Origin: a virus
DNA: 64,000 nt
Reading direction: 5' to 3' (one strand)
IMG/VR virus record: IMGVR_UViG_3300023049_000005
Coordinates: 73,053 to 137,052 of that record
Shown: one piece after another, positions 28,779 to 52,920 of the stretch
How positions within the stretch are numbered: position 1 is the first letter of the stretch
Layout: each line of letters starts with the position of its first letter
Translations under genes and position numbers: made by a program
Notes under the pieces: generated by a model
Database searches by the model: none
What the model saw: the letters and a program-made list of their open reading frames with translations, nothing else
What the model was told of the DNA's origin: nothing

Positions 28779-30401
28779 ATGGAACAAAAGTTACTTGAAA
28801 TATTTGAAAGTCCTCATAGGATGAGGGAAACGTATGTTAAAAAACATCACCCAAGTCTATATGATAGTATTATATCATATGTGGATTTTGACATTTCTTT
28901 CAAAGAAAAGCTTTGGTATTACTATAATAAACTAGAAGAAAAAATTACATGTAAGTGTGGTAAGGAAACTACGTTCAATAAGAATTTTAAAGACGGTTAT
29001 AAAAAATATTGCTCTGCTAAATGCGCACAGACAGCCGAATCTACTAAAGAAAAAAGAAAGAAAACTACTTTACATAAATATGGTGTTGATAATGTAGCTA
29101 AAAGTCAGAAAATTAAAGACAAGACCGAAGAAACCAATATCGAAAGGTATGGTCATAGATCTACGTTTCAAAATAAAGAAGTTCAGAGCAAATGGAAGGA
29201 AAATATTAAAAACAAATATGGCGTTGATCATATCTTCCAATCAGAGGAAGTAAAAGGAAAGATACAAGATACTATGAAGGAAAGGTATGGTGGACATTAT
29301 ACCAAAACCGATCATTATACAGATAAGCTTGGTGAAATTGGATTCAAGGAACTAATAAGGAAAAAGAAGTTAGATAAACACAAAGATTTTTTTAAAACAC
29401 ATGGTTATGAGTTTATAGAAATTAAAGATTATAGGAAATTCACCATAAAAAAGGATGATGATATATTCGAAATATATTGGGAAACTTTTATAAATAGGCT
29501 AGAAAACGGATATGAAATATCTACTAATATAAACCCATTATATTATACAGGTCAAAGTGAAAAGGAAAAGGAACTCATATCATGGATTAGGACATTGGGT
29601 GTAGAAATCGATGAATCTAATAGAAAAATACTAAATGGTAAAGAAATAGATATATTTCTACCTGAATATAAATTAGGAATAGAATTCAATGGTTTATATT
29701 GGCATAGTGAAATGAATAAAGAAAAGAAACATCATATAAACAAAACAAAACAGTTAAATGAATTAGGAATTAGTTTGGTACACGTATGGGAGGATGATTG
29801 GGATCATAAAAAAAATATAATACAATCTATTATTCTTAATAAGTTAAATAAAATATCTAATAAGATATATGCTAGAAAGTGTATTATAAAAGAAGTAAAT
29901 AGTAAGGAAACTAATTCCTTTTTAGATAAAAACCATATACAAGGTAAGTCAAAGGCTAATATTAAATTAGGTCTATATTATAGAGATGAATTAGTTAGCC
30001 TAATGACGTTTGGTTATCGTAATATAAACGGAACTAAGCAATATGAACTGATTAGGTTTTGTAATAAAATAAATAATATTGTCGTTGGGTCAGCTTCTAA
30101 ATTATTTAAATATTTTATTAATAATTATAATTATGATAACATCTTATCATACTCTGATATAAGTATGTTTGATGGCAAATTATATGAAATGTTAGGATTC
30201 GAAAACATGGGGGAAACTTCTCTAAACTATTGGTGGGTTGTTGATAAAAAGAGGTATCATCGGTTTACATATAATAAGAAAAAGTTGATCAAAGAAGGAC
30301 ATGACCCAAACTTGACAGAAAAGGAAATTATGTATTCTCTAGGTAATTATAGAATTTGGGGATGTGGTCAAATTAGGTGGGTATATAAAAAACGATATTA
30401 A
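28779..30401 (+). CDS. Homing-endonuclease-like multidomain protein (zinc ribbon + KYG... repeats + Vsr/DUF559-type PD-(D/E)XK nuclease domain + conserved C-terminal domain)
   Basis: 540 aa; CKCG..CSAKC; IDIFLPEYKLGIEFNGLYWHSE...LVHVWEDDW nuclease core; paralog of 48871..50595. Confidence 0.6.
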   Translation: MEQKLLEIFESPHRMRETYVKKHHPSLYDSIISYVDFDISFKEKLWYYYNKLEEKITCKCGKETTFNKNFKDGYKKYCSAKCAQTAESTKEKRKKTTLHKYGVDNVAKSQKIKDKTEETNIERYGHRSTFQNKEVQSKWKENIKNKYGVDHIFQSEEVKGKIQDTMKERYGGHYTKTDHYTDKLGEIGFKELIRKKKLDKHKDFFKTHGYEFIEIKDYRKFTIKKDDDIFEIYWETFINRLENGYEISTNINPLYYTGQSEKEKELISWIRTLGVEIDESNRKILNGKEIDIFLPEYKLGIEFNGLYWHSEMNKEKKHHINKTKQLNELGISLVHVWEDDWDHKKNIIQSIILNKLNKISNKIYARKCIIKEVNSKETNSFLDKNHIQGKSKANIKLGLYYRDELVSLMTFGYRNINGTKQYELIRFCNKINNIVVGSASKLFKYFINNYNYDNILSYSDISMFDGKLYEMLGFENMGETSLNYWWVVDKKRYHRFTYNKKKLIKEGHDPNLTEKEIMYSLGNYRIWGCGQIRWVYKKRY

Positions 30402-30444
30402 TTTTTAATATATACTTTAACAAAAAAATAACTTACTGATACTG

Positions 30445-30690
30445 ATGGAAAAAATAATTAAATCCTTTGCTACCTTCGCAAAATCTATTAAAGAAAATGT
30501 AGAAGAAGAGATGTTATCAACATGGACACTTACTGTATATGATGAAGATGATAACATTAGACATCAAGAAGATATTGATTCTGATGACGAACTCAAAGCT
30601 GAAACAACTGCTAGAAAAATGGTAGATAATATGGATGACTACTGTGACGGATGGGATTGGACTTTAATGCCTAAAGAATTCTTTGCTTAG
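30445..30690 (+). CDS. Hypothetical small acidic protein
   Basis: 81-aa ORF. Confidence 0.4.
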   Translation: MEKIIKSFATFAKSIKENVEEEMLSTWTLTVYDEDDNIRHQEDIDSDDELKAETTARKMVDNMDDYCDGWDWTLMPKEFFA

Positions 30691-30992
30691 ATATAAGACT
30701 TAAATACATATATCCAAATAGATATAACACCCACTAATATCAGTAGTGATATAACATATTCTTTTTTAGTAGCTTCATATTTCCTCCCGAATCCCACTGT
30801 GTTATCCATAGATAAAAATATTGCTGTACTCATAACTAAAGATAAAAGTGATGAATTCAAATTACTCATTCCCGTGTACCCAAATGATATACCTATAATT
30901 AACCAAAGACATATTAAAAATACAACACTCGAACTTAATCTCATAGTAGATTCCGTGTCCGTTGGCTTAAATGTTCTTAAATAATTTCTCAT
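30687..30992 (-). CDS. Small membrane protein
   Basis: 101 aa, 3 hydrophobic helices. Confidence 0.4.
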   Translation of the reverse strand: MRNYLRTFKPTDTESTMRLSSSVVFLICLWLIIGISFGYTGMSNLNSSLLSLVMSTAIFLSMDNTVGFGRKYEATKKEYVISLLILVGVISIWIYVFKSYI

Positions 30993-31504
30993 AATTTTTC
31001 TCTTGTTTTCATTAATACTTTTCCTAATCTATTTTCACCTGTCCAATTTTCTTCAAATAATATCTGATCATCCGAGGCTGATATACCCACCCCCCATTTA
31101 TTATCATATGGAGAAGCTTCGACAAGTGTTCTATCACCACTATCAACTAATGTTTTGTGGGCTTCTTTATTAAAAGTATATTTATGTAGACATACGTTAT
31201 ACATTACACCAAAGCTAATTTTATCCCATTTCTCAGCATCAAAGTTGGGTATAGATCTACCTATATTTTTAACTTTCTTAGGATCGATTTCATTAATACA
31301 TTTCTCGGCTAGTTCTAATTGATTAAAGAACATACACTTCTCAAACATATAAGCTTGCTCTGAATTATTAAAAAGGTACTCTTGTGTAATTTCCCCTGTT
31401 AATATATCATTCACTTTCTTTCTATATAAGAAAGGAGCAGGGTAGAAGTTTGAAAAAACATCTGCTACCGAAAAGAAATATATGTGTGTATCTGTTATTC
31501 TCAT
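30989..31504 (-). CDS. NADAR / YbiA-family (DUF1768) N-glycosidase-like protein
   Basis: 171 aa; FFSVADVFSNFYPAPF..SEQAYMFEK..GRSIPNFDAEKWDK..LVEASPYDNKWGVG matches YbiA pattern FS.FSNF...SEHYFQA.KF...GR...W...LVE.S..D.YWG.G. Confidence 0.7.
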   Translation of the reverse strand: MRITDTHIYFFSVADVFSNFYPAPFLYRKKVNDILTGEITQEYLFNNSEQAYMFEKCMFFNQLELAEKCINEIDPKKVKNIGRSIPNFDAEKWDKISFGVMYNVCLHKYTFNKEAHKTLVDSGDRTLVEASPYDNKWGVGISASDDQILFEENWTGENRLGKVLMKTREKL

Positions 31505-31512
31505 TGCTTTTA

Positions 31513-31551
31513 TATAAAAAAAAAGGAGATTAGTTTATAATCTCCTTTTTG
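31513..31551 (-). terminator. Rho-independent terminator (aggagatta-gtt-taatctcct flanked by A/T runs)
   Basis: 9-bp stem, T-run on minus strand. Confidence 0.55.
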
Positions 31552-31573
31552 TATATCTATTTTTATGTGTGTT

Positions 31574-32404
31574 TTATTTTAATCCTTTCACAACAGTAGT
31601 GCCTGCCCCGTATACATTATCAGTACCGTAAGGAGAACCTTTACCTTCTCTGAATCCTTGCCACTTTACGTATTCGTTATACTGTGGTGATCTAGCAAGT
31701 TGTTTTTGGATAAGTTGAATGTATTGAGATTCACCTTCTGCTTCTAATATAGTAGCTTGTTTAGTACCTTCTGCTTTCTTAATAGTAGCATTAGCTATGT
31801 ATTCTTGTTCTAATTCTAGTTCTTTAGCTCTTTGGTTTTTCTGCTTTTGTTCCTCTTTGCCCGTAATTGCTTTTCTTACATTATCAGGTAAGGTAACATC
31901 TGCGATCTCACAGAAATGATAGTCAATATAATTAGATCTAAATTCTCTGTCCATAAGCTCATCAAGTTCTAATTCTAAGGCTTCTCTTTTAGTAGAATAA
32001 ATTTCTTCATATGTATATCTACCAATGACATTCTTAATAGCTCCCTTTACAATAGGATCAATATAACTAGTTTCATATCCTACACCATGTTTTAAATGGA
32101 GTTTAGGTGTCTTATATTTAGCAGGGCTATAGTTAACTGTGATATCTACTGTGATATCCATTCCATTCTTTTCCATCACCGAGGATGAATAGTTTCTACT
32201 TTGTTGTAGAACATTATACCTAATAAGGTCATTCCAAGGTGCGATAAGCTGTGCGCCTTCTTTATAAACTGTTGATGTGTCTACACCATCATTATCCCAT
32301 GGTCTAAACATAAATGCTTCCTGACCAGGATCTACAACGTTAACACATGATGTCATTGATATTACTGCGATAGACATCGCAAAGATTTGAATTACTTTTT
32401 TCAT
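31574..32404 (-). CDS. SPFH/band-7 (prohibitin-like) lipoprotein
   Basis: 276 aa; signal peptide + lipobox MTSC; PHB-like core and C-terminal coiled-coil (QKQKNQRAKELELEQEY). Confidence 0.5.
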   Translation of the reverse strand: MKKVIQIFAMSIAVISMTSCVNVVDPGQEAFMFRPWDNDGVDTSTVYKEGAQLIAPWNDLIRYNVLQQSRNYSSSVMEKNGMDITVDITVNYSPAKYKTPKLHLKHGVGYETSYIDPIVKGAIKNVIGRYTYEEIYSTKREALELELDELMDREFRSNYIDYHFCEIADVTLPDNVRKAITGKEEQKQKNQRAKELELEQEYIANATIKKAEGTKQATILEAEGESQYIQLIQKQLARSPQYNEYVKWQGFREGKGSPYGTDNVYGAGTTVVKGLK

Positions 32405-32478
32405 ATTATTTTTATTTAATTTATATTAGACTATAAATATATGAATAAAAAAAGACCCAAACAAGGTTTAGGTCTTTT

Positions 32479-32861
32479 TTTAATGGAGTGGAGATGGAGG
32501 GAGTCGAACCCTCGTCACAGACACTTTAGTATAATACTTTCTACAAGTTTAGTTTACATAGTTAGGGTAAACACCTTAGTTAAACTTATTTTTTTAAACT
32601 GTTCTAATCAAACCAAAATTCAGTCCTTCTTATAATAACTGCTAAGAAGTTTGCAGCTTGGAGTTTTGTCGGTTGCTTAGACAGCTAATACAAGTTCTCC
32701 GTCTTGTACAGATTCCGTAGAATCTAATGCGTCTAAAACGTCAATCTTTTCAGATACTACGTTTAATTGTTTATCTACTAATTTATTAATCGGACACTTT
32801 AATAGACAATCCGATACTTGCTTACACTATCTGAAAATGACGCTCTAATCCAGTCACCCCC
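32479..32861 (-). ncRNA. ssrA: tmRNA (SsrA), phage-encoded
   Basis: 5' GGGGGUGACUGGAUU... pairs with 3' ...CAUCUCC-A (7 bp incl. G3-U70), T-arm GAGGGUUCGACUCCCUC, candidate tag frame ending ...GELVLAV-UAA at 32677..32730. Confidence 0.7.
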
Positions 32862-32926
32862 ATTTAAGTTTCATTATTTTATATATAAAAATATTAGAAT
32901 AAGTTTTAGCAAAATTAAATAAAAGA

Positions 32927-33481
32927 ATGGATAATAACAAATTAATAGTATTAGATATAGACGAAACTCTATTTCATTGTGAATATGAATTAGAGGATTT
33001 TGACTATGTGTTCGAAGAAGATAATATTATGTACTATACTAAGAAAAGACCTTATCTAGAAGAGTTTCTGAATTATATTAAAGGAAATTTCAAGTATGGT
33101 ATCTATACTACAGCAGGTGAAGATTATACTAAAATACACATGAAAAAGCTGAATTTAGACCCATTATTCCTCCTATCTTATAAAAATTGTACCCAAAAAA
33201 GGAAATTTAGTATGGGTGAGCAGAATGGATATACTTCTGAATGGTACTCATTAAAGAAACTTGATAAAGTAAAAAGGTATAGTGATAAATCTAATATGAT
33301 TGCTATCGATGATAAATGGGAAAGTTTTGCTAATGATTACGGAAACTTAATTAAAGTGAATCCTTTTACGGGTGATATAAATGATACTACCTTAAAGAAA
33401 CTTATGAAATATTTAGAAGATCTTAAAGGTGTGAAAAATATTAGAAAGGTTGAGAAACGGGGTTGGATGAGTAAATATTAA
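32927..33481 (+). CDS. HAD-superfamily phosphatase, NIF/FCP1-like
   Basis: 184 aa; LIVLDIDETLFH (DxDxT), KRPYLEEFL, IAIDD. Confidence 0.6.
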   Translation: MDNNKLIVLDIDETLFHCEYELEDFDYVFEEDNIMYYTKKRPYLEEFLNYIKGNFKYGIYTTAGEDYTKIHMKKLNLDPLFLLSYKNCTQKRKFSMGEQNGYTSEWYSLKKLDKVKRYSDKSNMIAIDDKWESFANDYGNLIKVNPFTGDINDTTLKKLMKYLEDLKGVKNIRKVEKRGWMSKY

Positions 33482-34119: not shown

Positions 34120-34156
34120 ATCTTATATATTAAAAGTCATTATACAAATATATGAT

Positions 34157-34167
34157 TTAATATATAA
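34157..34167 (+). promoter_or_regulatory. TTAATATATAA motif 3 nt upstream of start codon
   Basis: Recurring motif. Confidence 0.3.
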
Positions 34168-34170
34168 ACC

Positions 34171-35374: not shown

Positions 35375-35377
35375 CAC

Positions 35378-40894: not shown

Positions 40895-41563
40895 ATGTTA
40901 TTTAAATATCAACAATTTTTAAAAGAGAATAATAGTCTTAATATTTGGTATCATGGTACACCCGATGGTAGAGGGATAGTCAAAGATGGATTCTCACAAA
41001 ATACTAAAAGTGTGGAATATTTAAAAGATATTGAAGGTTATAAAGATATTATGAACCAATTAGAACAAGCTAGAATAGATGGTAAAGATAAATACTTTGA
41101 GATATTAGATAAGATATCTGATTTCAAAGACAATTTCACTTTTAATAAACCTATATTTTTAAGTAATAATTATAGAGTTGCTTCTACGTATGCTACTGAG
41201 AAAAGAGCATTTGATTACCAAGAATCTATACCGAAAGTATTTAAAATGGGTATAAAAAACGAAGGTAAGGTATTAACTATATATGCTCACAATAAACGAT
41301 TTAGATTTATTGATTCTGATTTTATAAAAAAGGGGTTAATGGACGGTGGTATAAGTTCAGAAAAAGCTGAAGAAACTATAAGTAAATTCAATTTCTTTTC
41401 AAGAAAAGATGGGATATCGATAGATACTATTGGAGCTATTGCTACTTATTTAGGATTTGATACAGTAGATGTAGTTGGTGTATTAGATAGTTACCACGGT
41501 GGTACTGTAAAATCTACGGTAAGAATGGTATTTGATTCGAAGAATATAGAGATATTAAACTAA
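40895..41563 (+). CDS. Hypothetical protein
   Basis: 222-aa ORF; TTAATATATAAG 2 nt upstream of ATG. Confidence 0.5.
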   Translation: MLFKYQQFLKENNSLNIWYHGTPDGRGIVKDGFSQNTKSVEYLKDIEGYKDIMNQLEQARIDGKDKYFEILDKISDFKDNFTFNKPIFLSNNYRVASTYATEKRAFDYQESIPKVFKMGIKNEGKVLTIYAHNKRFRFIDSDFIKKGLMDGGISSEKAEETISKFNFFSRKDGISIDTIGAIATYLGFDTVDVVGVLDSYHGGTVKSTVRMVFDSKNIEILN

Positions 41564-41982
41564 TCTCCTAATATTTTATCTATCATATAATCTCTCATAA
41601 GATAACTAAAATTTTTATCATTAGATAATGTTTCTAAGGTATCATTATATGATTTCTCTGTAACAGTTAAATTATATTCTTTTACATAGTCTAATCTACG
41701 TAATAAAAATCGACGCATTAAATCCTTATCTCTGAAATAAAAAGTAGATTGATTTGATGCGTGATCAGAAGGATCTGTTTCTATTCTCGATAATTTATCA
41801 ACACTTAATTGACTTCCATAATAACAATTTTCTAATTTCAAATTATTATTTAACGGAAAATTCAATTCGTATATTTGACCTTGTGCGAATGGGTTGATGA
41901 TAACAGTAGTATAGCGATATTCTTCTAGTTTCTTAGCTATACTTTTAGATTGTTTACTAGTTAGACTAAGACCATTAACCAT
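41560..41982 (-). CDS. Hypothetical protein (antisense gene immediately upstream of terminase)
   Basis: 140-aa ORF. Confidence 0.45.
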   Translation of the reverse strand: MVNGLSLTSKQSKSIAKKLEEYRYTTVIINPFAQGQIYELNFPLNNNLKLENCYYGSQLSVDKLSRIETDPSDHASNQSTFYFRDKDLMRRFLLRRLDYVKEYNLTVTEKSYNDTLETLSNDKNFSYLMRDYMIDKILGD

Positions 41983-42228: not shown

Positions 42229-44466
42229 ATGAAAAAATTCTTAATTAAATTAATCTATAAATGTATAGAGCTTATAGAAAGGATAGAATATAGAAACCAT
42301 ATATTAGACGAAGATGATAATGATTATAAAATATTATCTGAACATGATGTTTATGGGTATAAAGTTAAATCTGATTCGGGTTATATTGATATTAGTAAAA
42401 TGATGATCACACAACCATATACTCATTATTATTTAGAGTTAGAAAATGGGATGAATTTGACTTGTGCTGATAATCATAGAATATTTGATCAATATTTAAG
42501 TGAAATGTTTGTGAAACACTTAAAGGTAGGTGATAAAATATCTACTGAATCAGGTATATCTAAAGTTAAGATAATAAAGAAATTGAAAAGAAAGACTTCT
42601 ATGGTTGATATTACAGTTGATCATGAAGACCATAGGTATTATACAAATGGTATATTAAGTCATAACACAGTATGTGCGGCTATTTATATATTACATTATA
42701 TGATGTTTAATAATAATAAAAACGTACTTATTGCTGCGAATAAATTAGAAACATCACAAGAAGTACTTGATAAAATTAAGACACTTTATAGTTACATTCC
42801 ATTGTTTTTAAAACAAGGTATTGATACATGGAATGTAAATAGGATAAAATTTGAGAACGGATGTAGAGCTAAAGCATTCGCAATGACGAAAAATGCTTCT
42901 ATTGGTAATGCGGGTGACTTAGTATATGTTGATGAGTTTGCCCATATTAATAATAATATAGCAGATAAATTCTATAAATCTATTTTCCCTACTTTAGCAT
43001 CTATCGAAAATTCTAAAATGATTATTACATCGACACCTGATGGATATAACCTATTTCATAAACTATTAACAGATGCTGAGAGAGAAATATCAGATCCATT
43101 GAAGAATGAGTTTACACCATTGAGGGTTTATTGGCATCAAGTACCTGGTCGTAATGTAACTTATTTCAAGATAAACCAACATTTATTATTACAACAGAAT
43201 TTAGATTTAGATTCGGTCTTTGAACAATTGAAAGAAATATATAACCCTAACGATGATGTCAATTCTAATAATATTCCTCTTGTAACAAAGAAAACACAAA
43301 GTATTAATAGGAAAACATGGATACATGTACAGAACACAGAAAGATTAAAATATGATGATCTTAAAAATACTTCTGTGGTCAATAGAGATGGTGAAAAAAT
43401 ATTTTGTTCTACATTCTGTGATGGTATTTCTACTTGGAAATTAGATGCAATTAAGAATATTGGTGGTGAGGATAACTTTAATCAAGAATATGATCTTCGT
43501 TTCGCATCAGGGTCTAGAAGTGTATTAAAAGAAGAAACCATTGAAAGAATTACTAATAGTAAACAAAAGTATAGACATATTAATGGATTAGAAGAATTCG
43601 ATAAATTAAAATGGGATTATAGCTCATTAAAATTCGCTAAAGATTGGGATGAAGATATGAGAAAGAATATGTATGGTATGATCTCCGTCGATGTATCTGA
43701 GGGATTAGGTCAAGATTATAGTGTAATTAATATGTTCAGATTAGGATATAAATCACAAGAAATAATAGAAGAACAAAAGGAACACTATTCAGTAAGAGAA
43801 GACTTTTTTCAATTAACTCAATTTGGATTATTTAGATCTAATATAATTAGTGTAGAGCAACTTGCTGAGATACTTTATGTATTGATATTCGAATTTTTTG
43901 ATCCTGATAAAATGAAAGTAGTTGTTGAATATAACAATGACGGAAAGACATTATTGAATGCTATTAAGAACGTATTCAACAGAGAGAATGATTATAGTAC
44001 TTATGTTATGTTAAAATTTAAACATCGATTAGATGCTGTTGATCGAAAGGTAGGTCTGAAAGTAGGACTTAATAAAAATAAGTTTGTTAAAGATTATCAG
44101 TTAATGTTAGAAGATCAGACTATTTTAGTTAGTGAAGAGAATACTATCAAAGAGATATCTACCTTTATTTCACATGAAACAGCAGCAGGGAATGTGATTT
44201 ATAGAGGGGATGGTTCTAATGATGACTTAGCTATGACTATTGTGAATCTAACACAAGGTTGGAGAAACAGATCATTTAAAGATACTGTATTAGATTTCAT
44301 GGATAATGAACCGAATAATATTATAAATAAATTAATAGCTGAGGTATTAGAAAAGGAGAAGTCTATTGGAACAGATTATGGATCTTTTTTTAAGGGTAAG
44401 AAAAATTACACAAATTATAATACTAGAAATTTTAGAGGGGGTATAGACCCTAAATCACTTATTTAA
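42229..44466 (+). CDS. terL: Large terminase subunit (T4 gp17-like) C-terminal portion preceded by a mini-intein; N-terminal ATPase segment not encoded upstream
   Basis: From residue 146 aligns with gp17 right after Walker A (TVCAAIYILHY..., Walker B LVYVDEFAHI, ITSTPDGYN); residues ~12-145 carry intein blocks B (GMNLTCADNHRIF) and F/G (VDITVDHEDHRYYTNGILSHN|T). Confidence 0.8.
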   Translation: MKKFLIKLIYKCIELIERIEYRNHILDEDDNDYKILSEHDVYGYKVKSDSGYIDISKMMITQPYTHYYLELENGMNLTCADNHRIFDQYLSEMFVKHLKVGDKISTESGISKVKIIKKLKRKTSMVDITVDHEDHRYYTNGILSHNTVCAAIYILHYMMFNNNKNVLIAANKLETSQEVLDKIKTLYSYIPLFLKQGIDTWNVNRIKFENGCRAKAFAMTKNASIGNAGDLVYVDEFAHINNNIADKFYKSIFPTLASIENSKMIITSTPDGYNLFHKLLTDAEREISDPLKNEFTPLRVYWHQVPGRNVTYFKINQHLLLQQNLDLDSVFEQLKEIYNPNDDVNSNNIPLVTKKTQSINRKTWIHVQNTERLKYDDLKNTSVVNRDGEKIFCSTFCDGISTWKLDAIKNIGGEDNFNQEYDLRFASGSRSVLKEETIERITNSKQKYRHINGLEEFDKLKWDYSSLKFAKDWDEDMRKNMYGMISVDVSEGLGQDYSVINMFRLGYKSQEIIEEQKEHYSVREDFFQLTQFGLFRSNIISVEQLAEILYVLIFEFFDPDKMKVVVEYNNDGKTLLNAIKNVFNRENDYSTYVMLKFKHRLDAVDRKVGLKVGLNKNKFVKDYQLMLEDQTILVSEENTIKEISTFISHETAAGNVIYRGDGSNDDLAMTIVNLTQGWRNRSFKDTVLDFMDNEPNNIINKLIAEVLEKEKSIGTDYGSFFKGKKNYTNYNTRNFRGGIDPKSLI
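42262..42663 (+). mobile_element. Mini-intein (Hint domain, no endonuclease domain) in terminase P-loop
   Basis: Cys12 ... block B TxxH-type ... terminal HN followed by Thr; ~134 aa. Confidence 0.65.
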
Positions 44467-44954: not shown

Positions 44955-47900
44955 ATGCCAACAGTAGATATAGGTAAATACCAAAGACCAGGAATTTTCA
45001 TAGAAGAATTTAATAACTCAGCAATAGAAACACCTATTGTTACAGGTATTCAGTCATTAGTTATTGGTTCTAGTAAGAAAGGACCTCTCAATACACCTGT
45101 TGTAATTAACTCACAAATCCAATTAGAAAGAATTTTTGGAACAATTGATAGATCTTTAGAATCAAAGGGTTCTTTTTTTCACAGAACTATATCAAGAGTT
45201 TTACAAAACACACCCGTAGTTGCTATGAACATAGTAGACTTAGACGACGATTTAGATCAAATCGAGTATAAATCATTATCAACAGCAACAGGTTATGTAA
45301 ATGATGCAATAAGAGAAGCACCATATAGTAGATTTTTCAATACTTCTGCTTTTTGGGAAAAAGATAGAGAAGCATTTTTATCTGTAACAGACGATAACGC
45401 AGGTGACGAAAATAGAGTATTACACTTCACTAACTTAAATAATAGACAAGTTACTATCTTTATAGTAAAGTCACAAAACTCATATGGATTTGATAAAACA
45501 TTATTAGAATGGTATGGATCAGTTGATAAAGTACCTTTATATTTGGATAAAAATGATTTCGCATCAGACTACTTAGTAGATGTTGTAATGTTATCAGGAG
45601 ATTGGACTAATTACACTGAATTATCAGTAGATCCAATTTGGAGTCAATACTTCAATAACCAAGGATTAGTTAAAGATCAATTATTCAATTTAGTGAATAA
45701 TCAAAGTATTAATACGTTAGGGGTATTCAGAAACTTATCATTAATCCCTTACTTCACAGATGCTAGTAACACTAACATCTTTATTGAAGATAGAATTAAT
45801 TTAAGAACTGATGAAACAGGTATTTATATGGCATATAATATCGACGCAGTAGAAACTACATATAGAAATGGTTTATTAGATTTAGTAGGTAATAATATTA
45901 TTGCTGATAACACTATTGAAAGAATTGAAATGTTATCATATAATGATGATGTTACAGAAAAAAACGAATATGTTGAAAAACAATTAGATTCATTAGGTAA
46001 TACACACCAATTAACATTTGGTTCTTATTATCAAGAAGCGGGTCAAGAAAGAAAGGCAGCATACGCAGAGGATTTTGTGATCGGTCTTATCGGACCTTCT
46101 GCATCTGAGATTGATGGTACATACCCATCGGATGTAGGATATGGTACATATAGCGTAGATTTTGGTACAACTTCTGTAACAATTGGAGCAGAACAACCAT
46201 ATGCTATCATTGGTGGACAAGCTTTATTAATAGCTGCTACTGATTTTGATTTTGTTCCTGATGATTTTACGACAAATAGTACAAGTCCTGGAACAACACA
46301 AAGTTTCCAAAAAGTATTCTTTATTGATACTGACGGTGGTATTAAAACTAACCCTAATAACAATGACCTCACAAATGGTATAGTATTAGGTTACGTTGAT
46401 ATTATAGTAGCATTAGATGCAGATAGAGTTAAATATTTCCAATCTGTTGACTATACACCTGTATCAGTAGGTGAAAGTGGATTTATCTACTTTGATAATT
46501 CAACTGATGTAACAGTAACAGTTAACGCTAATCAAAATCAAATTACATATGAATTCTTAAACACAACAGGAGTTCCTGATGTAACTGATTATGTTGGATA
46601 TAGAAGATGGAAGACATTTAATAATATGTCAGGTATCTTAAGTAGTTCAACAGGAAATAGAGCAACAATATTAGTAGATGAAGGAAGTGGTTCTAATGGA
46701 AATCCATGGAAAAGAGCTATTGCTGATCTAGACGTTACATTAGTAACTAGCACTACATTAAATAAAACAATAACAATTAGTGGATTTGATACAGGATTTT
46801 TAAATTCTTCTATCTTAGAAACTAACGGACTTGTATTACATATAATTGATAATGAATTTGTATTATCATCAGAAGGTGCTATTACAACAAATAATTGGAT
46901 TGGAGCAACATATGGTATAGTAGCTGAATACAGTGATTTATATCAAGATTATATAGATGGTAATATAAACACAGGAGATTATTTCTACGAAAACTTAATT
47001 GATGGATTAGATAATACAGCCGAAGCATCTGAGTTAAACTATGTTAGATTATTAGATATCAATGGTGATGATTACTTAATAAGTGATAAAGAATTAAATT
47101 TCCAAACGAATGATACTATTATCTTACCTGAATCTACAAGTAACACAGGAGAATTGATCGTTTCAGATCCAACTCCAATTGCTACGGGATTAACGGGAGC
47201 GACAGGTGCGTATTTTGGATATTTATTATCATCTAATATTACTGATGAAGTAATAGTTAATCCAACTAAGATTTGGTTAACAAGCGGAACAGGACAAAAA
47301 TTCCTAAGATTTTACTTAGTGAATGATATATTGACAATTGATTTTACTGATGCTAGTCTAAACCCTGGTGCGAGTACATTCAATAAAACGATTGATATTA
47401 TTTCACAATCATCTAATTTTAGACAAACAGTAGAAATAGAAGAACCTGTAGGATACACTCCTATAACTAATAAAATATTAGTAGATGCTACTAGATATGC
47501 TGAAATTAGAATAGGTGATTTCTTACAAGCAGTAGCACCTGAGGCAACTGAATTAGGAGAAGTTCCAAGACAAGTAACAAGAGTTATCAGAAAAAGAACA
47601 TATTCTGAGGATGTATCATTAGTAGAAATTACATGTGATTCAGCTATTAGATTATATGACTTCAATGGTGATAAACAAACATACAGATTTACACAGATCG
47701 ATGATTATGTATCAACATATAAAGGTATTAATTTATTTGGTTTCAGATTAAGAACAGCTTCTTTACCTGATAATACTGATAGTAGATTAACAGATATATT
47801 AAATGTAGTAGGTAAAGGAACATCTTTATATAACGCATTAACAGATAAAAATATCATTGATTTTAGATACTTGATCGATTCTTATGGATTAGGTCTTATA

Positions 47901-48764
47901 AGTAATTCTAAGCAACAATTAGCTGATATTTGTGGTAAGCGTTTAGATTGCTTCGGTATATTAAACATGCCAAGTATGAAACAATTTAGAAATGCTGCAG
48001 CACCGAGTTTCACTGATAGTAGAGGTGCTATTAGATTTGATTATATCAGATTAGGAGGTAACCCTGAAGCAGTTGCGGGATTTAACTTCTCATTAGCAGA
48101 AGGCGATGGTCAAACATGTGTGGCTTACTTTACTCCTTATGTAACAATAGGAGATAACGGTAGACCAATTTCATTACCACCATCATCATTTGTGGCTAAC
48201 ACTTTCCTTAGAAAGCATAATAACGCTCTAACAAGTGTGACACCATGGACTATTGCTGCGGGTATTACTGATGGACAAATTACAGGTATATCAGGATTAG
48301 AATATAATTTAACAAATGAAGATATCATCGAGTTAAACCAAATGTCAGTTAACCCAATTGTTTCTAAGAGAAACAGAGGTAATGTAATTGAAACTGAGAA
48401 TACAGCAGAATCACTAGTAAATAGTGCATTAAGCTTTATCCATTCAAGAGAAGTATTAATTGAATTAGAAAGAGATCTTTCTGATATGTTACTACAATTC
48501 CAATGGAAATATAACACACCTGAGATTAGATCAGAGATCAAATTAAGAGCAGATACTATCTGTCAAGACTATGTAAATAGAAACGGACTATTTAACTTCT
48601 TTAATAAGATTGATAGTGAAAACAACACACAGGAGATTATCGATAATCAAATAGGTGTATTAGACACATATGTTGAGATTATTAAAGGTATGGGTGTAAT
48701 TGTTAATAACATCACGATACTTAATACGGGTGCAATTGATTCATCAGGTTTTCAAACTAGTTAA
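44955..48764 (+). CDS. Tail sheath protein, T4 gp18-like, with large internal insertions (1269 aa)
   Basis: N-terminus MPTVDIGKYQRPGIFIEE parallels gp18 N-terminus; C-terminal domain (VNPIVSKRNRGNVIETENT...) parallels conserved gp18 C-terminus; followed by terminator. Confidence 0.7.
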   Translation: MPTVDIGKYQRPGIFIEEFNNSAIETPIVTGIQSLVIGSSKKGPLNTPVVINSQIQLERIFGTIDRSLESKGSFFHRTISRVLQNTPVVAMNIVDLDDDLDQIEYKSLSTATGYVNDAIREAPYSRFFNTSAFWEKDREAFLSVTDDNAGDENRVLHFTNLNNRQVTIFIVKSQNSYGFDKTLLEWYGSVDKVPLYLDKNDFASDYLVDVVMLSGDWTNYTELSVDPIWSQYFNNQGLVKDQLFNLVNNQSINTLGVFRNLSLIPYFTDASNTNIFIEDRINLRTDETGIYMAYNIDAVETTYRNGLLDLVGNNIIADNTIERIEMLSYNDDVTEKNEYVEKQLDSLGNTHQLTFGSYYQEAGQERKAAYAEDFVIGLIGPSASEIDGTYPSDVGYGTYSVDFGTTSVTIGAEQPYAIIGGQALLIAATDFDFVPDDFTTNSTSPGTTQSFQKVFFIDTDGGIKTNPNNNDLTNGIVLGYVDIIVALDADRVKYFQSVDYTPVSVGESGFIYFDNSTDVTVTVNANQNQITYEFLNTTGVPDVTDYVGYRRWKTFNNMSGILSSSTGNRATILVDEGSGSNGNPWKRAIADLDVTLVTSTTLNKTITISGFDTGFLNSSILETNGLVLHIIDNEFVLSSEGAITTNNWIGATYGIVAEYSDLYQDYIDGNINTGDYFYENLIDGLDNTAEASELNYVRLLDINGDDYLISDKELNFQTNDTIILPESTSNTGELIVSDPTPIATGLTGATGAYFGYLLSSNITDEVIVNPTKIWLTSGTGQKFLRFYLVNDILTIDFTDASLNPGASTFNKTIDIISQSSNFRQTVEIEEPVGYTPITNKILVDATRYAEIRIGDFLQAVAPEATELGEVPRQVTRVIRKRTYSEDVSLVEITCDSAIRLYDFNGDKQTYRFTQIDDYVSTYKGINLFGFRLRTASLPDNTDSRLTDILNVVGKGTSLYNALTDKNIIDFRYLIDSYGLGLISNSKQQLADICGKRLDCFGILNMPSMKQFRNAAAPSFTDSRGAIRFDYIRLGGNPEAVAGFNFSLAEGDGQTCVAYFTPYVTIGDNGRPISLPPSSFVANTFLRKHNNALTSVTPWTIAAGITDGQITGISGLEYNLTNEDIIELNQMSVNPIVSKRNRGNVIETENTAESLVNSALSFIHSREVLIELERDLSDMLLQFQWKYNTPEIRSEIKLRADTICQDYVNRNGLFNFFNKIDSENNTQEIIDNQIGVLDTYVEIIKGMGVIVNNITILNTGAIDSSGFQTS

Positions 48765-48780
48765 TTTTAATAGATAAGAA

Positions 48781-48812
48781 TAAAAAAAGGAGAAATATAT
48801 TCTCCTTTTTTT
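48781..48812 (+). terminator. Rho-independent terminator after sheath gene (ggagaa-atatat-ttctcc + T7)
   Basis: A-run, GC-containing stem, T-run. Confidence 0.6.
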
Positions 48813-48870
48813 ATTGTTTAAACTTTTTTCCTATATTTGATACATATATAAAACACCAATATATAGTAAT

Positions 48871-50595
48871 ATGCTATCAAAGGAATTCATAAAAGAGTTC
48901 AATTTCAATAATAAGTCAGGTAAGATGTCTAGTTCTAAATATGTATCAAAGAACTATGCTGCGGATTATGATATTATTATAGGTAATATTAAAGAAGATA
49001 TCTCATTTAAAGAGAAAGTATATCTAACTGTTAATGATATTAACCATTCTCCTAATTGTAAGAATCCTAATTGTAATGACAAGGTAAAATTCAGAAATAC
49101 TACTTTAGGGTATAGAGAGTATTGTTCTAATAAATGTATTGGTTCAGATCCTAATATGATCAAAAGAAAAGAACAAAAGTCTTTAGAAAAGTTTGGCACA
49201 AAAACACCTGCCGAATCAGAAGTAATCAAACAAAAAATGATCAATACTAATAATAAATTATATGGTGGTAATTCTCCTATGTCAAATAAAGAAATTCAAG
49301 AGAAATCTAAGAAAACTTTAATGGGTAATTGGGGTGTAGAAAACCCTAACAGACATAAAGATTTAACAGAAAAAAGAATTAAGAGTTTTAAAAAAAATAT
49401 AGATCAGTTTAAGGCTTCTTTCAAAGAAACTAGCTTAAAGAAATATGGTGTGGAACACCATTGGATGGTTAAAGAAATACACGATAAAGGAATTAAAACT
49501 ACTAATAAGAAAAAACTTCAAAAGGAAGAAACTAAAATTAAAAAGAGGATACCAAGTGATTATAAATTACTTGGAATATTCAAAGAAAGTGAATTACATA
49601 ACAGAACAAGTAGTAGGATGTTATGTAATAAGGGTCATGAATTTGTCATAAATAATGATCTTTTATATCATAGGACAGTTAAAAACGATACAGTGATATG
49701 TACTGAATGTCATCCTCAAAATAATAGAAGTGTAAGTGGATTAGAATTACAACTACTTAATTTCATCGAAGAAAGTTATGAAGGTGAAATCATAACTAAT
49801 AATAGAACTATTATACCGCCACACGAAGTAGATATTTATCTACCTGAAATCAAATTAGCTATTGAATTTAATGGTCTTTTTTGGCATAGTGAGATCAATA
49901 AGGACAAGTATTATCACTTCAATAAAACTAATGAAGCTGAGAAAGAAGGCATACAGATGTTACATATTTGGGAAGACGATTGGCTATTGAAGGATGATAT
50001 AGTTAAATCTATGTTAAAGAATAAATTCAATAATACTCCTAATAAAGTATTTGGTAGAAAATGTAAAATTAAAAAAGTTGGCTCTAAGGAATACAGAGAA
50101 TTCTTAGATAATAATCATATACAAGGTTATTCTAATTCTACTTACTCGTATGGTTTGTATTATAACGAAAAATTAGTTAGTCTAATGACCTTTTCTAAAC
50201 CAAGGAATATGATGGGACATAAAAGTAGAGATAATGTTTATGAGTTAGCTAGGTTTTGTAATAAGACTAATTACAATATAGTAGGTGGTGCTTCTAAATT
50301 ATTTAAACACTTTATAAAAGAACATTCTCCTAAAGAAATATATTCTTTTAGTGATAGGTCATATTCTAATGGTAATCTTTATAAGATATTAGGGTTTGAA
50401 TATAGTCACAGAAGTAAAATAAATTACCATTGGGTATTAAACAAAGAGAGAAAGCATAGATATAATTTTGCTAAACATAAACTAGTAGAAAAGGGATACG
50501 ATCCCAATTTATCAGAAAGGGAAATTATGTATGAACAAGTGGGTGCTTATAGAATATGGAATAGTGGTCAAGATAAGTGGGTTTATCACATATAG
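48871..50595 (+). CDS. Homing-endonuclease-like multidomain protein, paralog of 28779..30401
   Basis: 574 aa; CKNPNC..CSNKC, EVDIYLPEIKLAIEFNGLFWHSE...LHIWEDDW, shared C-terminal domain (YRIWNSGQDKW). Confidence 0.6.
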   Translation: MLSKEFIKEFNFNNKSGKMSSSKYVSKNYAADYDIIIGNIKEDISFKEKVYLTVNDINHSPNCKNPNCNDKVKFRNTTLGYREYCSNKCIGSDPNMIKRKEQKSLEKFGTKTPAESEVIKQKMINTNNKLYGGNSPMSNKEIQEKSKKTLMGNWGVENPNRHKDLTEKRIKSFKKNIDQFKASFKETSLKKYGVEHHWMVKEIHDKGIKTTNKKKLQKEETKIKKRIPSDYKLLGIFKESELHNRTSSRMLCNKGHEFVINNDLLYHRTVKNDTVICTECHPQNNRSVSGLELQLLNFIEESYEGEIITNNRTIIPPHEVDIYLPEIKLAIEFNGLFWHSEINKDKYYHFNKTNEAEKEGIQMLHIWEDDWLLKDDIVKSMLKNKFNNTPNKVFGRKCKIKKVGSKEYREFLDNNHIQGYSNSTYSYGLYYNEKLVSLMTFSKPRNMMGHKSRDNVYELARFCNKTNYNIVGGASKLFKHFIKEHSPKEIYSFSDRSYSNGNLYKILGFEYSHRSKINYHWVLNKERKHRYNFAKHKLVEKGYDPNLSEREIMYEQVGAYRIWNSGQDKWVYHI

Positions 50596-50614
50596 TAACC
50601 CCTATTCCTAATAT

Positions 50615-50872
50615 CTATGTTAAGTTTAGAAAGAAGTTCTTAGTTCCTCTTACTAATACTCTTAATATGAACACAAATAGTTCTACTGCGATTACACCAT
50701 AACAAAATAACCAAATATATTTCCCATAATCAGGATTCATCCCATGATCACTGATCAATAGACCGATTACGATTTTAGTTACATAAAGCTCTAATGCGAC
50801 AAATATTGAAAATGTAGCAATAGCAACAGTTCCGTTGATTATTAATTTACATAATGTGAATAAAGTTTTCAT
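50615..50872 (-). CDS. Small membrane protein (2-3 TM; holin-like topology, speculative)
   Basis: 85 aa hydrophobic. Confidence 0.35.
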   Translation of the reverse strand: MKTLFTLCKLIINGTVAIATFSIFVALELYVTKIVIGLLISDHGMNPDYGKYIWLFCYGVIAVELFVFILRVLVRGTKNFFLNLT

Positions 50873-50938
50873 AGTTTTTTAGTTTGTTAATACAAATATA
50901 CTAAAAAATATGATAATACCAAAGAATTTATGACTTTT

Positions 50939-51319
50939 CTATATCAAGTTATTTATTATTTGATCTCTTTTTATAATCTTCTCTATATCTATTGTAGTAT
51001 AGAATCCATATCGAGCATTCGATTTATATTTTTGGTAAAAGTCAATACTCCACAGTTCACCTAATTCTGAATAAGAATTAAATATACTATATCTATTTAT
51101 ACCACTTAAGGCTGTTTTATCTGACCCTGTGGTTATCTTATAAACACCACCTTTAGTTTCTCTTTCTCCAAAATCACCATAATAATACACACCATTATCA
51201 ACTTCAATAGTAAATTCTAATTTATAATCTCGTGCTAAAGCACTTTTCGTTATATACTTATCTATATTATTGAAAATGGTAATAATATCCTCTGTTAGTG
51301 GTTTTCGTTTAATCTTCAT
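50939..51319 (-). CDS. Paralog family member B' (C-terminal motif IEKIIKRDQIINNLI)
   Basis: 126 aa; paralog of 51697..52122. Confidence 0.45.
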   Translation of the reverse strand: MKIKRKPLTEDIITIFNNIDKYITKSALARDYKLEFTIEVDNGVYYYGDFGERETKGGVYKITTGSDKTALSGINRYSIFNSYSELGELWSIDFYQKYKSNARYGFYTTIDIEKIIKRDQIINNLI

Positions 51320-51707
51320 CTAAAATATTATTAATACTTAATTCTCTATTCCTTTGTTTGATCCAACTACCATCACGTGTTACAAAGTAGTGATTGTCTT
51401 TATCCTTACCTTTTTCGAAAAAACTTATTATATGTATATCTTCCCATTCTAATTGATGGAAAATATTATAATGTTTTATATCAGATATATGAGATTGAGA
51501 AAATCCAATTCTATCTATATAATGTAAAGTGATATCGTCTACCTGATTAGTTTGGAAATTCAGAGAAAAACAATCATTAAATCCTTTCATATATCTGAAA
51601 TTAGAAACATTCCAAAGATTACCTTCTGTGTATATACACATATAATTAATCCTATCTGATATAGTGTTCAATATATCTTCGTTTATATTTTCTGTTCTAA
51701 TGTTCAT
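51309..51707 (-). CDS. Paralog family member A' (C-terminal ...SINNILDED)
   Basis: 132 aa. Confidence 0.45.
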   Translation of the reverse strand: MNIRTENINEDILNTISDRINYMCIYTEGNLWNVSNFRYMKGFNDCFSLNFQTNQVDDITLHYIDRIGFSQSHISDIKHYNIFHQLEWEDIHIISFFEKGKDKDNHYFVTRDGSWIKQRNRELSINNILDED

Positions 51708-52122
51708 CTAAGATATTATTTATGATATTATCTCTATTTAAAATAGTAAATATGTTAGTCTGCGTATAAAATTTTATTTTAGGTCTTGTTTTATATTTTT
51801 GATACAGCATTATAACTGTATAAGTCTCATCATTAAGTGCGTGACGTACTGACAACGTATATCTATTTAAACCCTTAATTGTTTTGGGGTTTATGTTAAT
51901 GCTTTCGGGTATAGTAGTTACCATAAAAAGGTCACCTTTATTTTCTGATAACTTACCATAATCACCATATACATAATCTTTGGTATCCTTTGTATAACCA
52001 ATATTAATTTTATCTTTAAGTTTAAAGTCACATATACTATAATTGAGGTAATGATCTCTTACTTTATTATAAAGGTCAATATTTGTAATAATATCTAAGA
52101 AGTCTGTTGTTATCTTTTTCAT
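51697..52122 (-). CDS. Paralog family member B (C-terminal FTILNRDNIINNILDEH)
   Basis: 141 aa. Confidence 0.45.
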   Translation of the reverse strand: MKKITTDFLDIITNIDLYNKVRDHYLNYSICDFKLKDKINIGYTKDTKDYVYGDYGKLSENKGDLFMVTTIPESININPKTIKGLNRYTLSVRHALNDETYTVIMLYQKYKTRPKIKFYTQTNIFTILNRDNIINNILDEH

Positions 52123-52439
52123 GATAGTAAAGAATTTAAAATGAGATCTCTTTTGATTATTTTTTCTATATCGATATTAAAATCCATATCCCCCATGAGT
52201 TTATCGTTAATATCATAAAATTCAATGTGTTTTTGGTCTAATATAATACTAATAATGTTATGTATCTTTGTCTCATGGTAAGGGTGTTCATTCATTTTGA
52301 TTGTTATTTGACAGAACATCCCTTTTTTTGACCAACTAAGCCTAGCAGAATTTTTTGTGTTTACATTATACCAAAAATATTGAAAATTAGAATCAATCAT
52401 TTTTATTATAGGTATAGTCAGCTTAATCTTTTCTTTCAT
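52119..52439 (-). CDS. Paralog family member A (C-terminal IEKIIKRDLILNSLLS)
   Basis: 106 aa. Confidence 0.45.
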   Translation of the reverse strand: MKEKIKLTIPIIKMIDSNFQYFWYNVNTKNSARLSWSKKGMFCQITIKMNEHPYHETKIHNIISIILDQKHIEFYDINDKLMGDMDFNIDIEKIIKRDLILNSLLS

Positions 52440-52593
52440 CTAAATGTTGTTTCATCCATTTATTATATTCGTCAAAGTTAAAGATTTTTTTCTCATTATC
52501 AAACCCGCACTTATGACATAAATAAGGATGATCATCATCGGACTTTATTTCCCATGACCAACTACATTTACTACATATTACTTTACTTTCCAT
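52423..52593 (-). CDS. Small zinc-ribbon protein (56 aa; CSKC...CHKC), below ORF-track cutoff
   Basis: MESKVICSKCSWSWEIKSDDDHPYLCHKCGFDNEKKIF...; TATATA-type motif just upstream. Confidence 0.35.
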   Translation of the reverse strand: MESKVICSKCSWSWEIKSDDDHPYLCHKCGFDNEKKIFNFDEYNKWMKQHLDERKD

Positions 52594-52638
52594 GTAGTAT
52601 ATAGTAAAAAAACACTTTTATAAAATAATATATATTTT

Positions 52639-52920
52639 ATGAGAAAATTAACCAATGAAAAATCTATATCTAAGGTGGATAGTGTACACAAAGGTTTATA
52701 TAAATATGATAAAACTAATTATGATATGTGTATAGAATATGATGGTATCCAACATTATAAACCTGTAGATTTTTTTGGAGGAATAAAAACACTTAAGGAT
52801 ATTAAAAAAAGAGACAATATAAAAACAAAATATTGTCAAGAAAACAATATAAAATTAATAAGAATCCCTTATAATAAAGAGGTTATAGAGTTAATGGAAA
52901 GTATTAATTTTAATATATAG
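52639..52920 (+). CDS. Stand-alone mini Vsr/DUF559-like nuclease domain protein
   Basis: 93 aa; CIEYDGIQHY ... NIKLIRIPY mirrors IEFNGLYWH...LVHVW core of the two HE-like proteins. Confidence 0.45.
   Translation: MRKLTNEKSISKVDSVHKGLYKYDKTNYDMCIEYDGIQHYKPVDFFGGIKTLKDIKKRDNIKTKYCQENNIKLIRIPYNKEVIELMESINFNI

Follow-up and report, generated by a model that had tools for sequence, protein, structure and literature searches.

Two predicted Hef-like homing endonuclease genes with Mom-like domains behind the capsid and tail sheath genes of a putative megaphage relative

We analyzed a 64,000-nucleotide stretch of viral DNA (positions 73,053 to 137,052 of the IMG/VR record IMGVR_UViG_3300023049_000005; the whole stretch is called the window), which carries two large genes, here named HefA and HefB, directly behind the major capsid and tail sheath genes, and a mini-gene directly upstream of a tail tube-like gene. 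A sequence-only reading of this DNA had described the two large genes as homing-endonuclease-like paralogues of common architecture and the mini-gene as encoding the same nuclease core. The three open reading frames (ORFs) were present at 28779-30401, 48871-50595 and 52639-52920, and a BLAST search of the window found no further Hef copies. Contigs of relatives are labelled L plus a number, and homologous proteins P plus a number. The three genes and their parts are listed below, with the mean predicted local distance difference test score (pLDDT) for the AlphaFold model of HefA.

28779..30401, plus strand: HefA, 540 residues, predicted Hef-like free-standing nuclease of the post-capsid lineage (AlphaFold mean pLDDT 90.9)
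28950..29024, plus strand: HefA Cys4 zinc ribbon (C58, C60, C78, C82), invariant in a 59-sequence alignment
29037..29291, plus strand: HefA, four 23-residue helix-loop repeats (DUF7487; Pfam PF24308, E 6e-15)
29544..29846, plus strand: HefA Vsr-like/EDxHD nuclease domain, residues 256-356 (profile match to 3r3p; Foldseek)
29847..30398, plus strand: HefA Mom-like GNAT domain, residues 357-540 (Foldseek match to 8bv8; sub-cutoff match to Pfam PF25680; hhalign)
48871..50595, plus strand: HefB, 574 residues, predicted Hef-like free-standing nuclease of the post-sheath lineage (PHROG 3339; tree position)
49057-49137, plus strand: HefB zinc ribbon (C63/C68/C85/C89), by alignment
~49153-49455, plus strand: HefB repeats (DUF7487, E 2e-11)
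49624-49710, plus strand: HefB second CxxH...CxxC site (residues 252-280), by alignment
49723-50028, plus strand: HefB nuclease domain, by alignment
50029-50592, plus strand: HefB Mom-like domain, by alignment
52639..52920, plus strand: mini-gene, 93 residues, apparently what an internal deletion has left of a small nuclease gene with a zinc finger and a Vsr-like (EDxHD-type) core; the tail tube gene follows after 31 nt

HefA and HefB were full-length paralogues with 39% identity across ~560 residues (BLAST, E 7e-114), which bears out their common architecture. For comparison at the family level they were aligned with 57 homologues, and all statements on invariance refer to this alignment of 59 sequences. 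The four cysteines of the N-terminal ribbon proposed earlier were invariant, as were many residues of the C-terminal part, and both proteins kept every invariant residue of the family. Tandem repeats follow the ribbon. Their period had been given as ~35 residues; it is in fact 23 residues, as indicated by the spacing of the (Y/F/W)G dipeptides, by the helix-plus-loop units of the model and by Pfam DUF7487. In HefA the YG dipeptides were at residues 101, 124, 147 and 170, and each modelled unit consisted of one 15-residue helix (87-101, 110-124, 133-147 and 156-170) and a loop; in HefB the (Y/F/W)G dipeptides were at residues 108, 131, 154 and 192. The repeat array is presumed to be a DNA-binding module that reads the DNA target. 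Identity between HefA and HefB was 28% in the N-terminal part, 47% in the nuclease domain and 53% in the C-terminal domain, and the C-terminal domain that had been noticed in both proteins was the most conserved module of all. The middle CxxH...CxxC site, present in HefB and in the family consensus, was missing from HefA, whose model showed a three-stranded sheet at that place.

Nearly the whole PHROG 3339 profile ('homing endonuclease') was matched by both proteins (E 1e-126 for HefA and 1e-119 for HefB), and more than 6,793 homologues were found at E<=1e-10 in a metagenome protein collection. Homologues in PA5oct, RaK2 and T4-like phages (e.g. Yersinia phage fHe-Yen9-01) are annotated as 'Hef-like homing endonuclease' or 'homing endonuclease', and these annotated proteins showed 30-35% identity at 90-99% query coverage. 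Hef itself is reportedly known from phage U5, from work by Sandegren et al. in 2005. Judged by their full-length homology, HefA and HefB are intact members of the already annotated Hef-like family, a branch of the Vsr-like EDxHD homing endonucleases; they are ordinary members of a known family and not new in kind. Taylor et al. (2011) assigned the 'Hef type' endonucleases of phages to the EDxHD family, to which genes beside fractured intein genes also belong (PMC3239194), in agreement with the family that the sequence-only reading had suggested, and Hef of phage U5 was reported to cleave nrdB (PMC2988022). Hef-like genes are free-standing, occur in several copies per genome and have conserved genes for structure or replication as neighbours (PMC3296691).

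The motifs IEFNG..WH and H(V/I)WEDDW of the nuclease domain were invariant across the family. The invariant residues of this domain, in HefA numbering, were E263, E302, N304, G305, H309, H319, K322, E338, D339 and W341, and D291 was nearly invariant. A profile of the domain run against the PDB matched the catalytic domain of I-Bth0305I (3r3p, E 7.3e-6), with D291, N304 and H309 opposite D196, N208 and H213. In a Foldseek search, the AlphaFold model of residues 256-356 (pLDDT 90.7) had as its best PDB folds 3r3p (template modelling score 0.70-0.73, root-mean-square deviation 2.7 A), Vsr (1vsr/1cw0) and the DUF559 protein 3hrl. Profile and fold together supported the Vsr/DUF559-type core that had been read from the motifs. 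Searches with hidden Markov models (HMMs), proposed as a check, gave a divided outcome: PHROG 3339, DUF7487 and the 3r3p profile were matched, while HefA and HefB scored below the cutoffs of the Pfam nuclease families MTES_1575 and Vsr. Searching PDB sequences by phmmer with HefA or the mini-gene as single-sequence queries returned noise only. At the fifth catalytic position, the HMM alignment put H319 opposite D222 of I-Bth0305I (D97 of Vsr) and K322 opposite K225, and E338 and D339 were on the next strand.

I-Bth0305I, an EDxHD enzyme (Taylor et al. 2011; 3r3p), is thus a relative of HefA and HefB in its nuclease domain, which is homologous and keeps the Glu, Asp, Asn and His positions. Unlike HefA and HefB, it is encoded in an intron, has only 266 residues, carries N-terminal NUMOD and helix-turn-helix (HTH) motifs and is without the C-terminal domain. 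HefA and HefB are free-standing and about twice as long, combine the zinc ribbon with DUF7487 repeats and the Mom-like domain, and have no adjoining intein or intron; the last position of their catalytic motif falls, in the HMM alignment, on an invariant His and not on Asp.

To compare the insertion sites, we examined the capsid and sheath loci of relatives. At the post-capsid site, 53 loci could be evaluated: 6 had a Hef gene immediately behind the capsid gene, another 5 had one after an intervening mini-type gene, and the remaining 42 had none. The two closest relatives (L010/L011-type; capsid identity 82% and 76%) had no post-capsid Hef gene, and their gene order was conserved up to the capsid stop codon and unrelated beyond it. 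At the post-sheath site, a Hef gene was found ~110 nt after the sheath stop codon in 17 of 28 evaluable loci, with remnants in 2 and no Hef gene there in 9. HefB was 44-51% identical to the copies at the same site in 15 relatives. Among deposited phage genomes, LR745206 and LR756502 have a homologue of the window ORF 53734-54645 directly after the sheath gene, with no Hef gene between; LR756501 likewise has no Hef gene behind its sheath gene; in LR756504 one is found at the same position as in the window; and LR756500 has four around its sheath gene. Hef genes were therefore absent from the closest relatives at the post-capsid site and from most others, and this sporadic presence accords with the earlier proposal that they are mobile and not syntenic in all relatives.

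A neighbour-joining tree showed that the copies cluster by site and not by genome. HefA grouped with all post-capsid copies (bootstrap 200/200) and HefB with the post-sheath copies (198/200, or 104/200 with the LR756504 copy included). Since the copies group by site, we regard HefA and HefB as orthologues of two site-bound lineages. A recent intragenomic duplication was considered and rejected, each gene grouping with same-site copies in other phages.

Presence/absence differences and decay were also seen among relatives. L085 and L086 had flanks 96-98% identical to those of L087 and differed from it by a 1.7-kb segment that was exactly the post-sheath Hef cassette, absent in L087; the cassette was bounded on both sides by GGATTTTTT(T)ATTA. 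In L077 and L078, the post-sheath Hef gene was a pseudogene (~10960-11960), in which the first 81 codons were kept, followed by stops, and the repeats and the nuclease were deleted. The Mom-like part of this pseudogene was open and 52% identical to that of HefB; the Mom-like half may be retainable alone. Stacking of elements was found in L104 (2464-7641), the long contig with the closest full-length HefA homologue (65% identity), where three nuclease-type genes come after the capsid gene: in order, a GIY-YIG gene, one for a zinc-ribbon nuclease, and a Hef gene. The zinc-ribbon/DUF4379 protein of L104 carries a mini-type core, and another DUF7487 protein is encoded upstream of the protease gene. 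Copy number also varied, from two in the window to 13 places in LR756500.

Hef-like genes adjoin the capsid gene in PA5oct, in Lak phages and, at the gp23-gp24 junction, in two T4-like phages (RPN226 and fHe-Yen9-01). The placement of HefA and HefB had been called typical of free-standing homing endonucleases in T4-like phages. The niche agrees, with Hef-like genes at the gp23-gp24 junction of such phages; the T4-like host does not. The T4 genome itself has segD at this junction. Like segD and other Seg and Mob genes, HefA and HefB are intergenic, lie beside late structural genes and behind hairpins, and vary between relatives; the catalytic folds are unrelated, being GIY-YIG or HNH in Seg and Mob and Vsr-like in HefA and HefB. 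The nearest counterparts are the Hef and 'Hef-like' endonucleases of LIMEstone1, Campylobacter CP220-type phages, PA5oct and RaK2, which share PHROG 3339 and full-length homology with HefA and HefB, and the Hef-like genes of T4-like phages, which like HefA are placed by the capsid gene (gp23-gp24). From these known genes HefA and HefB differ in their apparent host, a megaphage relative, and in belonging to post-capsid and post-sheath lineages tied to their own sites.

The site distribution, the indel, the pseudogene and the stacking match, without proving, the cycle in which free-standing homing endonuclease genes invade, become fixed, decay and are lost. We conclude that HefA and HefB are probably intact free-standing mobile nuclease genes of the Hef-like family, each in a site-bound lineage. 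During co-infection, the nuclease would cut the corresponding region of a related genome without the gene, and recombinational repair would then copy the Hef gene together with flanking sequence from the carrier genome. The repeat array, the most divergent part of the proteins, would read the DNA target. A position behind the terminators of highly expressed late genes may keep Hef expression low. The Mom-like domain, which keeps most Mom active-site residues, would most likely either engage the target by base flipping or modify adenines to protect the carrier genome.

The assignment of the C-terminal domain came from the full-length HefA model, for which Foldseek returned phage Mu Mom as the best PDB match (8bv8_A, E 3.6e-7, and 8bv8_B, E 6e-6, in the first two places), with dozens of GNAT acetyltransferases after it. 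Against Pfam Mom (PF25680) the HefA domain scored 22.3 bits (E 1.2e-4), below the gathering cutoff of 27.1 bits, and HefB had no match; the homologues P0044 and P0064 reached 25.5 bits. The hhalign comparison of the domain with Mu Mom was weak (E 0.013 across 160 columns), and a profile of the domain run against PDB sequences did not retrieve Mom. The link to Mom thus rests on the fold search, the sub-threshold Pfam match and hhalign, from which the predicted C-terminal domain shared by HefA and HefB is a Mom-like GNAT domain.

Mu Mom, which has a GNAT fold, is an adenine N6-carbamoylmethyl transferase that depends on Gly-tRNA (PDB 8bv8; PMC13219725). Its residues R111, S124, D149 and R151 are essential, and Y159, H58 and Y59 are also listed (PMC13219725); R111 is specific to Mom and not general to GNAT enzymes (PMC7261163). 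In the hhalign alignment, the Mom motifs ELNR, NSES, SFAD and G..Y were opposite ELIR, GSAS, SYSD and G..Y of HefA, which paired R111 with R426, S124 with S440, D149 with D460, G156 with G466 and Y159 with Y469. All five HefA residues were invariant or nearly so in the family, and H386 was also conserved. In this weak alignment, Mom R151 fell in a gap and had no HefA counterpart, and H58 and Y59 were ambiguous against an invariant NHIQG motif. Two HefA helices (500-505 and 514-520) sit, according to the model and hhalign, at the position of the essential HTH-like insertion of Mom. Mu Mom therefore resembles the HefA domain in fold, in the ELxR, S, D and G..Y motifs and in the helices at the insertion. 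The HefA domain is unlike Mu Mom in its weak sequence match, in not keeping R151 and in being fused to a nuclease, while Mu Mom stands alone under Com/Dam control. Such a nuclease-Mom fusion is not new. Mom-REase fusions of jumbo phages, described by Iyer et al. (2021) and read as a restriction-modification-like conflict system (PMC7824862), are apparently of the same family and architecture as HefA and HefB; that reading differs from the site-specific selfish mobility indicated by the distribution data.

Several points weigh against HefA and HefB being mobile homing endonucleases. What is observed for HefA and HefB are the domain identities, the conservation of catalytic residues, the site-specific lineages, and presence, absence and decay in relatives; that they cleave DNA, where their targets lie, that they home and what the Mom-like domain does are inferred. 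The aligned fifth catalytic position holds the invariant His319 rather than Asp, and the link to the tested U5 Hef is by database annotation and a literature statement. From presence and absence, gain by homing cannot be told apart from vertical descent accompanied by frequent loss, and the indel between L085 and L087 could be a deletion between the short repeats. No relative close enough to the window to define the empty HefA and HefB sites at the nucleotide level was found. A conserved and apparently competent Mom-like domain is unexpected in a simple homing endonuclease and fits a different explanation, along the lines of Iyer et al. (2021), in which each protein is a single-chain restriction-modification system or inter-phage weapon. 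The Mom-like domain would then modify the phage's own adenines genome-wide, the nuclease would degrade unmodified DNA of the host or of superinfecting phages, and the genes would be kept for the benefit of the phage, which is compatible with mobility.

We regard this restriction-modification explanation as rather unlikely. In its favour, PA5oct has five HefA-like places, equal to its Mom-REase count by Iyer et al., and we infer that the two sets of proteins are the same. Mu Mom is the best structural match of the HefA C-terminal domain, the positions of R111 (the Mom-specific one; PMC7261163), S124, D149 and Y159 are invariant or nearly so, and this domain is the most conserved module. The L077/L078 pseudogene, with its nuclease deleted and its Mom-like part open, is also what would be expected if a protective half outlives a toxic half. 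However, the essential R151 has no counterpart, the Pfam Mom scores are below the curated cutoff with no match for HefB, and the combination of a Vsr-type nuclease and a long array for reading DNA points to targets that are long and rare. Many diverged Hef copies occur in one genome (two in the window and the 13 places of LR756500), and each lineage is tied to one intergenic site by a structural gene, is missing in the majority of close relatives and includes precise indels and pseudogenes, which is the signature of selfish site-specific elements and not of a defence gene that is maintained. It is far less probable still that HefA and HefB are inert passengers, i.e. former homing endonucleases that became fixed at their sites, lost activity and are heading to decay. 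Decayed copies in relatives, the decayed mini-gene in the same window and the loss from HefA of the middle CxxH...CxxC site kept by HefB and the family consensus would suit such an origin, but both ORFs are full length, all invariant residues of the zinc ribbon, nuclease and Mom-like domain are kept, and the AlphaFold model is confident throughout. Mobile, intact Hef-like genes remain the favoured explanation.

The mini-gene belongs to another Vsr-like subfamily. The sequence-only reading had given it the nuclease core of HefA and HefB. This held at the profile level, where the mini-gene family and the Hef nuclease domain were linked by hhalign (probability 94.9%, E 4e-8) and by a common match to PHROG 559; it did not hold at a closer level, as the mini-gene is of a different subfamily and showed no BLAST similarity to HefA or HefB. 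The mini-gene family is nearer than Hef to the canonical EDxHD pattern, the final Asp being kept. Nor does the mini-gene encode a whole core. Its matches to PHROG 559, 9084 and 7140 covered the C-terminal half of the nuclease region only. Longer relatives of 146-373 residues (L007, L035, L051 and L085) have one or more zinc-finger modules, an 'SKGE' helix, an 'FDFY' strand, IE(Y/F)(D/N)G.QH, RD..K and LIRIPY. The first 28 residues of the mini-gene matched the N-terminal 'FIEKA..IHG.KYDYSKV.Y' module of these relatives from Met to Met (ungapped score 56, reached by 0 of 20,000 shuffles), after which the sequence goes straight to IEYDGIQH and keeps RD..K and LIRIPY. The helix with the conserved Glu ('SKGE') was missing, and the Asp strand ('FDF') was missing or out of register.

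This arrangement implies that the mini-gene probably arose by an in-frame internal deletion of ~58 residues comprising the zinc knuckle, the Glu helix and the Asp strand. An alignment with such a deletion scored 214 with cheap long gaps. A contiguous alignment (score 195 with standard gap costs), in which the Asp is two residues out of register, was less favoured, and the Glu helix is missing either way. We prefer the deletion because the N-terminal 28 residues match in register and because P0122 has the same module. The mini-gene would then be what decay has left, almost certainly without activity, of a member of a second and smaller family of Vsr-like homing endonucleases, which also appears to move in and out of these loci. 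This family also shows clean presence/absence polymorphism. L085 carries at 15274-16395 a mini-family gene of 373 residues (~1.1 kb) with a complete SYGS...FDFY...IEYDGEQH core, which is precisely absent from the 94-97% identical L086 and L087.

Alternatively, the mini-gene could encode a functional small protein, for example a nuclease-core fragment acting as an inhibitor, partner or regulator of related nucleases, which we consider improbable. The ORF is open and ends 31 nt before the tail tube gene, and a 99% identical 93-residue copy was found on four other contigs, though these contigs probably represent the same phage population and say little about selection. Its metagenomic homologues (P0122-P0151) include many of 63-100 residues, and in P0146 the N-terminal module is fused directly to IEYDG as in the mini-gene, which could reflect either recurrent decay or an unrecognised small-protein form. 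These short homologues are truncated at differing points, as expected of independent decay, and the mini-gene is without the conserved-Glu helix and the in-register catalytic Asp strand of its full-length relatives.

The neighbouring genes and hairpins in the window are listed below. The flanking genes named in the sequence-only reading, capsid and sheath, were confirmed by PHROG as major head protein and tail sheath.

26981..28693, plus strand: major capsid protein gene (gp23-like; PHROG 138 major head protein; 48-58% identity to the capsid genes of LR745206, LR756502, LR756504 and LR756501)
28714..28749, plus strand: terminator-like hairpin between the capsid stop and the HefA start, with a 16-bp stem and then a T run
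42229..44466, plus strand: large terminase ORF, 745 residues, with a C-terminal fragment of an atypically split intein (intein motifs; phmmer against the PDB)
44955..48764, plus strand: tail sheath gene, 1269 residues (PHROG 34521 and PHROG 23 tail sheath; 45% identity to the LR745206 and LR756502 sheath genes)
48779..48815, no strand: hairpin between the sheath stop and the HefB start, flanked by A and T runs and terminator-like in both directions
52951..53583, plus strand: tail tube-like gene (PHROG 45 tail tube, E 1e-8)

The gene order in the window is portal, protease, capsid and HefA, and later terminase, sheath, HefB and tail tube; the portal and protease genes upstream of the capsid gene are in the same order in L010 and L011. 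HefA starts 85 nt after the capsid gene and HefB 106 nt after the sheath gene. In the Hef-less relatives L005, L006 and L008, the tail tube-like gene or the next gene (53734-54645) lies directly 3' of the sheath gene. Matches to sigma-70-type promoters around HefA and HefB were not above the expectation from shuffled sequence, and we therefore claim no promoter for either gene.

The nearest deposited genomes were the uncultured phages LR745206 and LR756500-LR756504 (0.46-0.74 Mb; capsid identity 34-58%, sheath identity 33-48%), which are those of Al-Shayeb et al. Lak megaphages and Tenacibaculum jumbo phages were the next closest in the capsid and sheath comparison. From these affinities, the source phage is taken to be a megaphage relative, which is T4-type in its structural module only and not T4-like in the narrow sense.

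At 1269 residues the sheath protein is unusually long, and relatives align to it as two blocks around a variable central region. In the comparison of L087 with L085, sheath gene identity was 83% overall and 98% at the 3' end, the central part being by far the more diverged. The interval from HefB to the mini-gene holds four consecutive small minus-strand ORFs (126, 132, 141 and 106 residues; 50939-52439) with a common terminal motif, I(I/L)(K/N)RD.I(I/L)N.(I/L)L, which appear to be tandem paralogues; no Pfam match was obtained for the two that were scanned. Relatives such as L076 do not have this block in the interval from sheath to tail tube gene. A 56-residue ORF (52423-52593, minus strand) lies just before the mini-gene in the opposite orientation and has a CxxC...CxxC zinc-ribbon pattern (CSKCSW...CHKCGF) and no PHROG match.

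The sequence-only reading had also pointed to a terminase intein in the window as a notable companion of the endonuclease genes. The intein was found, as a C-terminal fragment of an atypically split intein that occupies residues ~1-146 of the terminase ORF, with the C-extein starting at the Walker A threonine. It contains the intein blocks LTCADNHRIF and MVDITVDHEDHRYYTNGILSHN followed by Thr, and its end reads ...YYTNGILSHN|T. In phmmer searches the fragment matched CatC (6dsl_B, E 5e-6), VidaL and the gp41-1 intein, and Pfam gave no intein domain in the ORF. The intein-less terminase of LR745206 reads SRQVGK|T at the insertion point, which is in the Walker A motif. The N-extein (~116 residues) was not found in the 64-kb window by regular-expression and tblastn searches. 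For this reason the predicted terminase must be a split gene, assembled by trans-splicing, with its N-extein and short N-intein part presumably encoded elsewhere in the genome.

The suggested link between this intein and HefA or HefB did not hold up. Endonuclease genes are said to occur at 'fractured' split-intein loci (Dassa and colleagues, in 2009), where the endonuclease gene lies between or beside the halves of the split gene, an arrangement that the window does not have. No Vsr-like gene lies next to the split terminase gene, whose upstream neighbour (41560-41982, minus strand) had no nuclease motifs on inspection of its translation, without a profile search. HefB is 4.4 kb from the terminase fragment, beyond the sheath gene, and the N-terminal part of the terminase is not in the window.

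For the phage, two intact selfish nuclease genes and one wreck account for ~4 kb of non-conserved sequence in the structural module of a putative megaphage relative, and HefA, HefB and the mini-gene mark the points at which synteny with relatives breaks. For the family, one very large group of proteins goes by two incompatible labels in papers and databases, either 'Hef-like homing endonuclease' or 'Mom-REase modification-restriction enzyme'. Site-bound lineages, the 1.7-kb indel between nearly identical genomes and decayed copies give the homing-endonuclease label firm comparative support, while constraint on the Mom-like domain is no weaker than on the nuclease.

A speculative extension, which we think doubtful, is that the Hef-like elements are self-immunising homing endonucleases. 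The Mom-like domain would mark adenines at or near the element's own target, using an aminoacyl-tRNA or another acyl donor, which would protect the carrier genome, and the Vsr-like nuclease would cut the unmarked allele in co-infecting relatives. The Gly-tRNA-dependent chemistry of Mom was solved in 2026, and DNA modification by a homing endonuclease family in the course of its life cycle is now directly testable. If the self-immunising reading were true, each gene would encode, in one polypeptide, a site-directed restriction-modification unit that spreads by homing, and the more than 6,000 members of the family would be a large unexplored reservoir of sequence-targeted DNA adenine-modifying enzymes.

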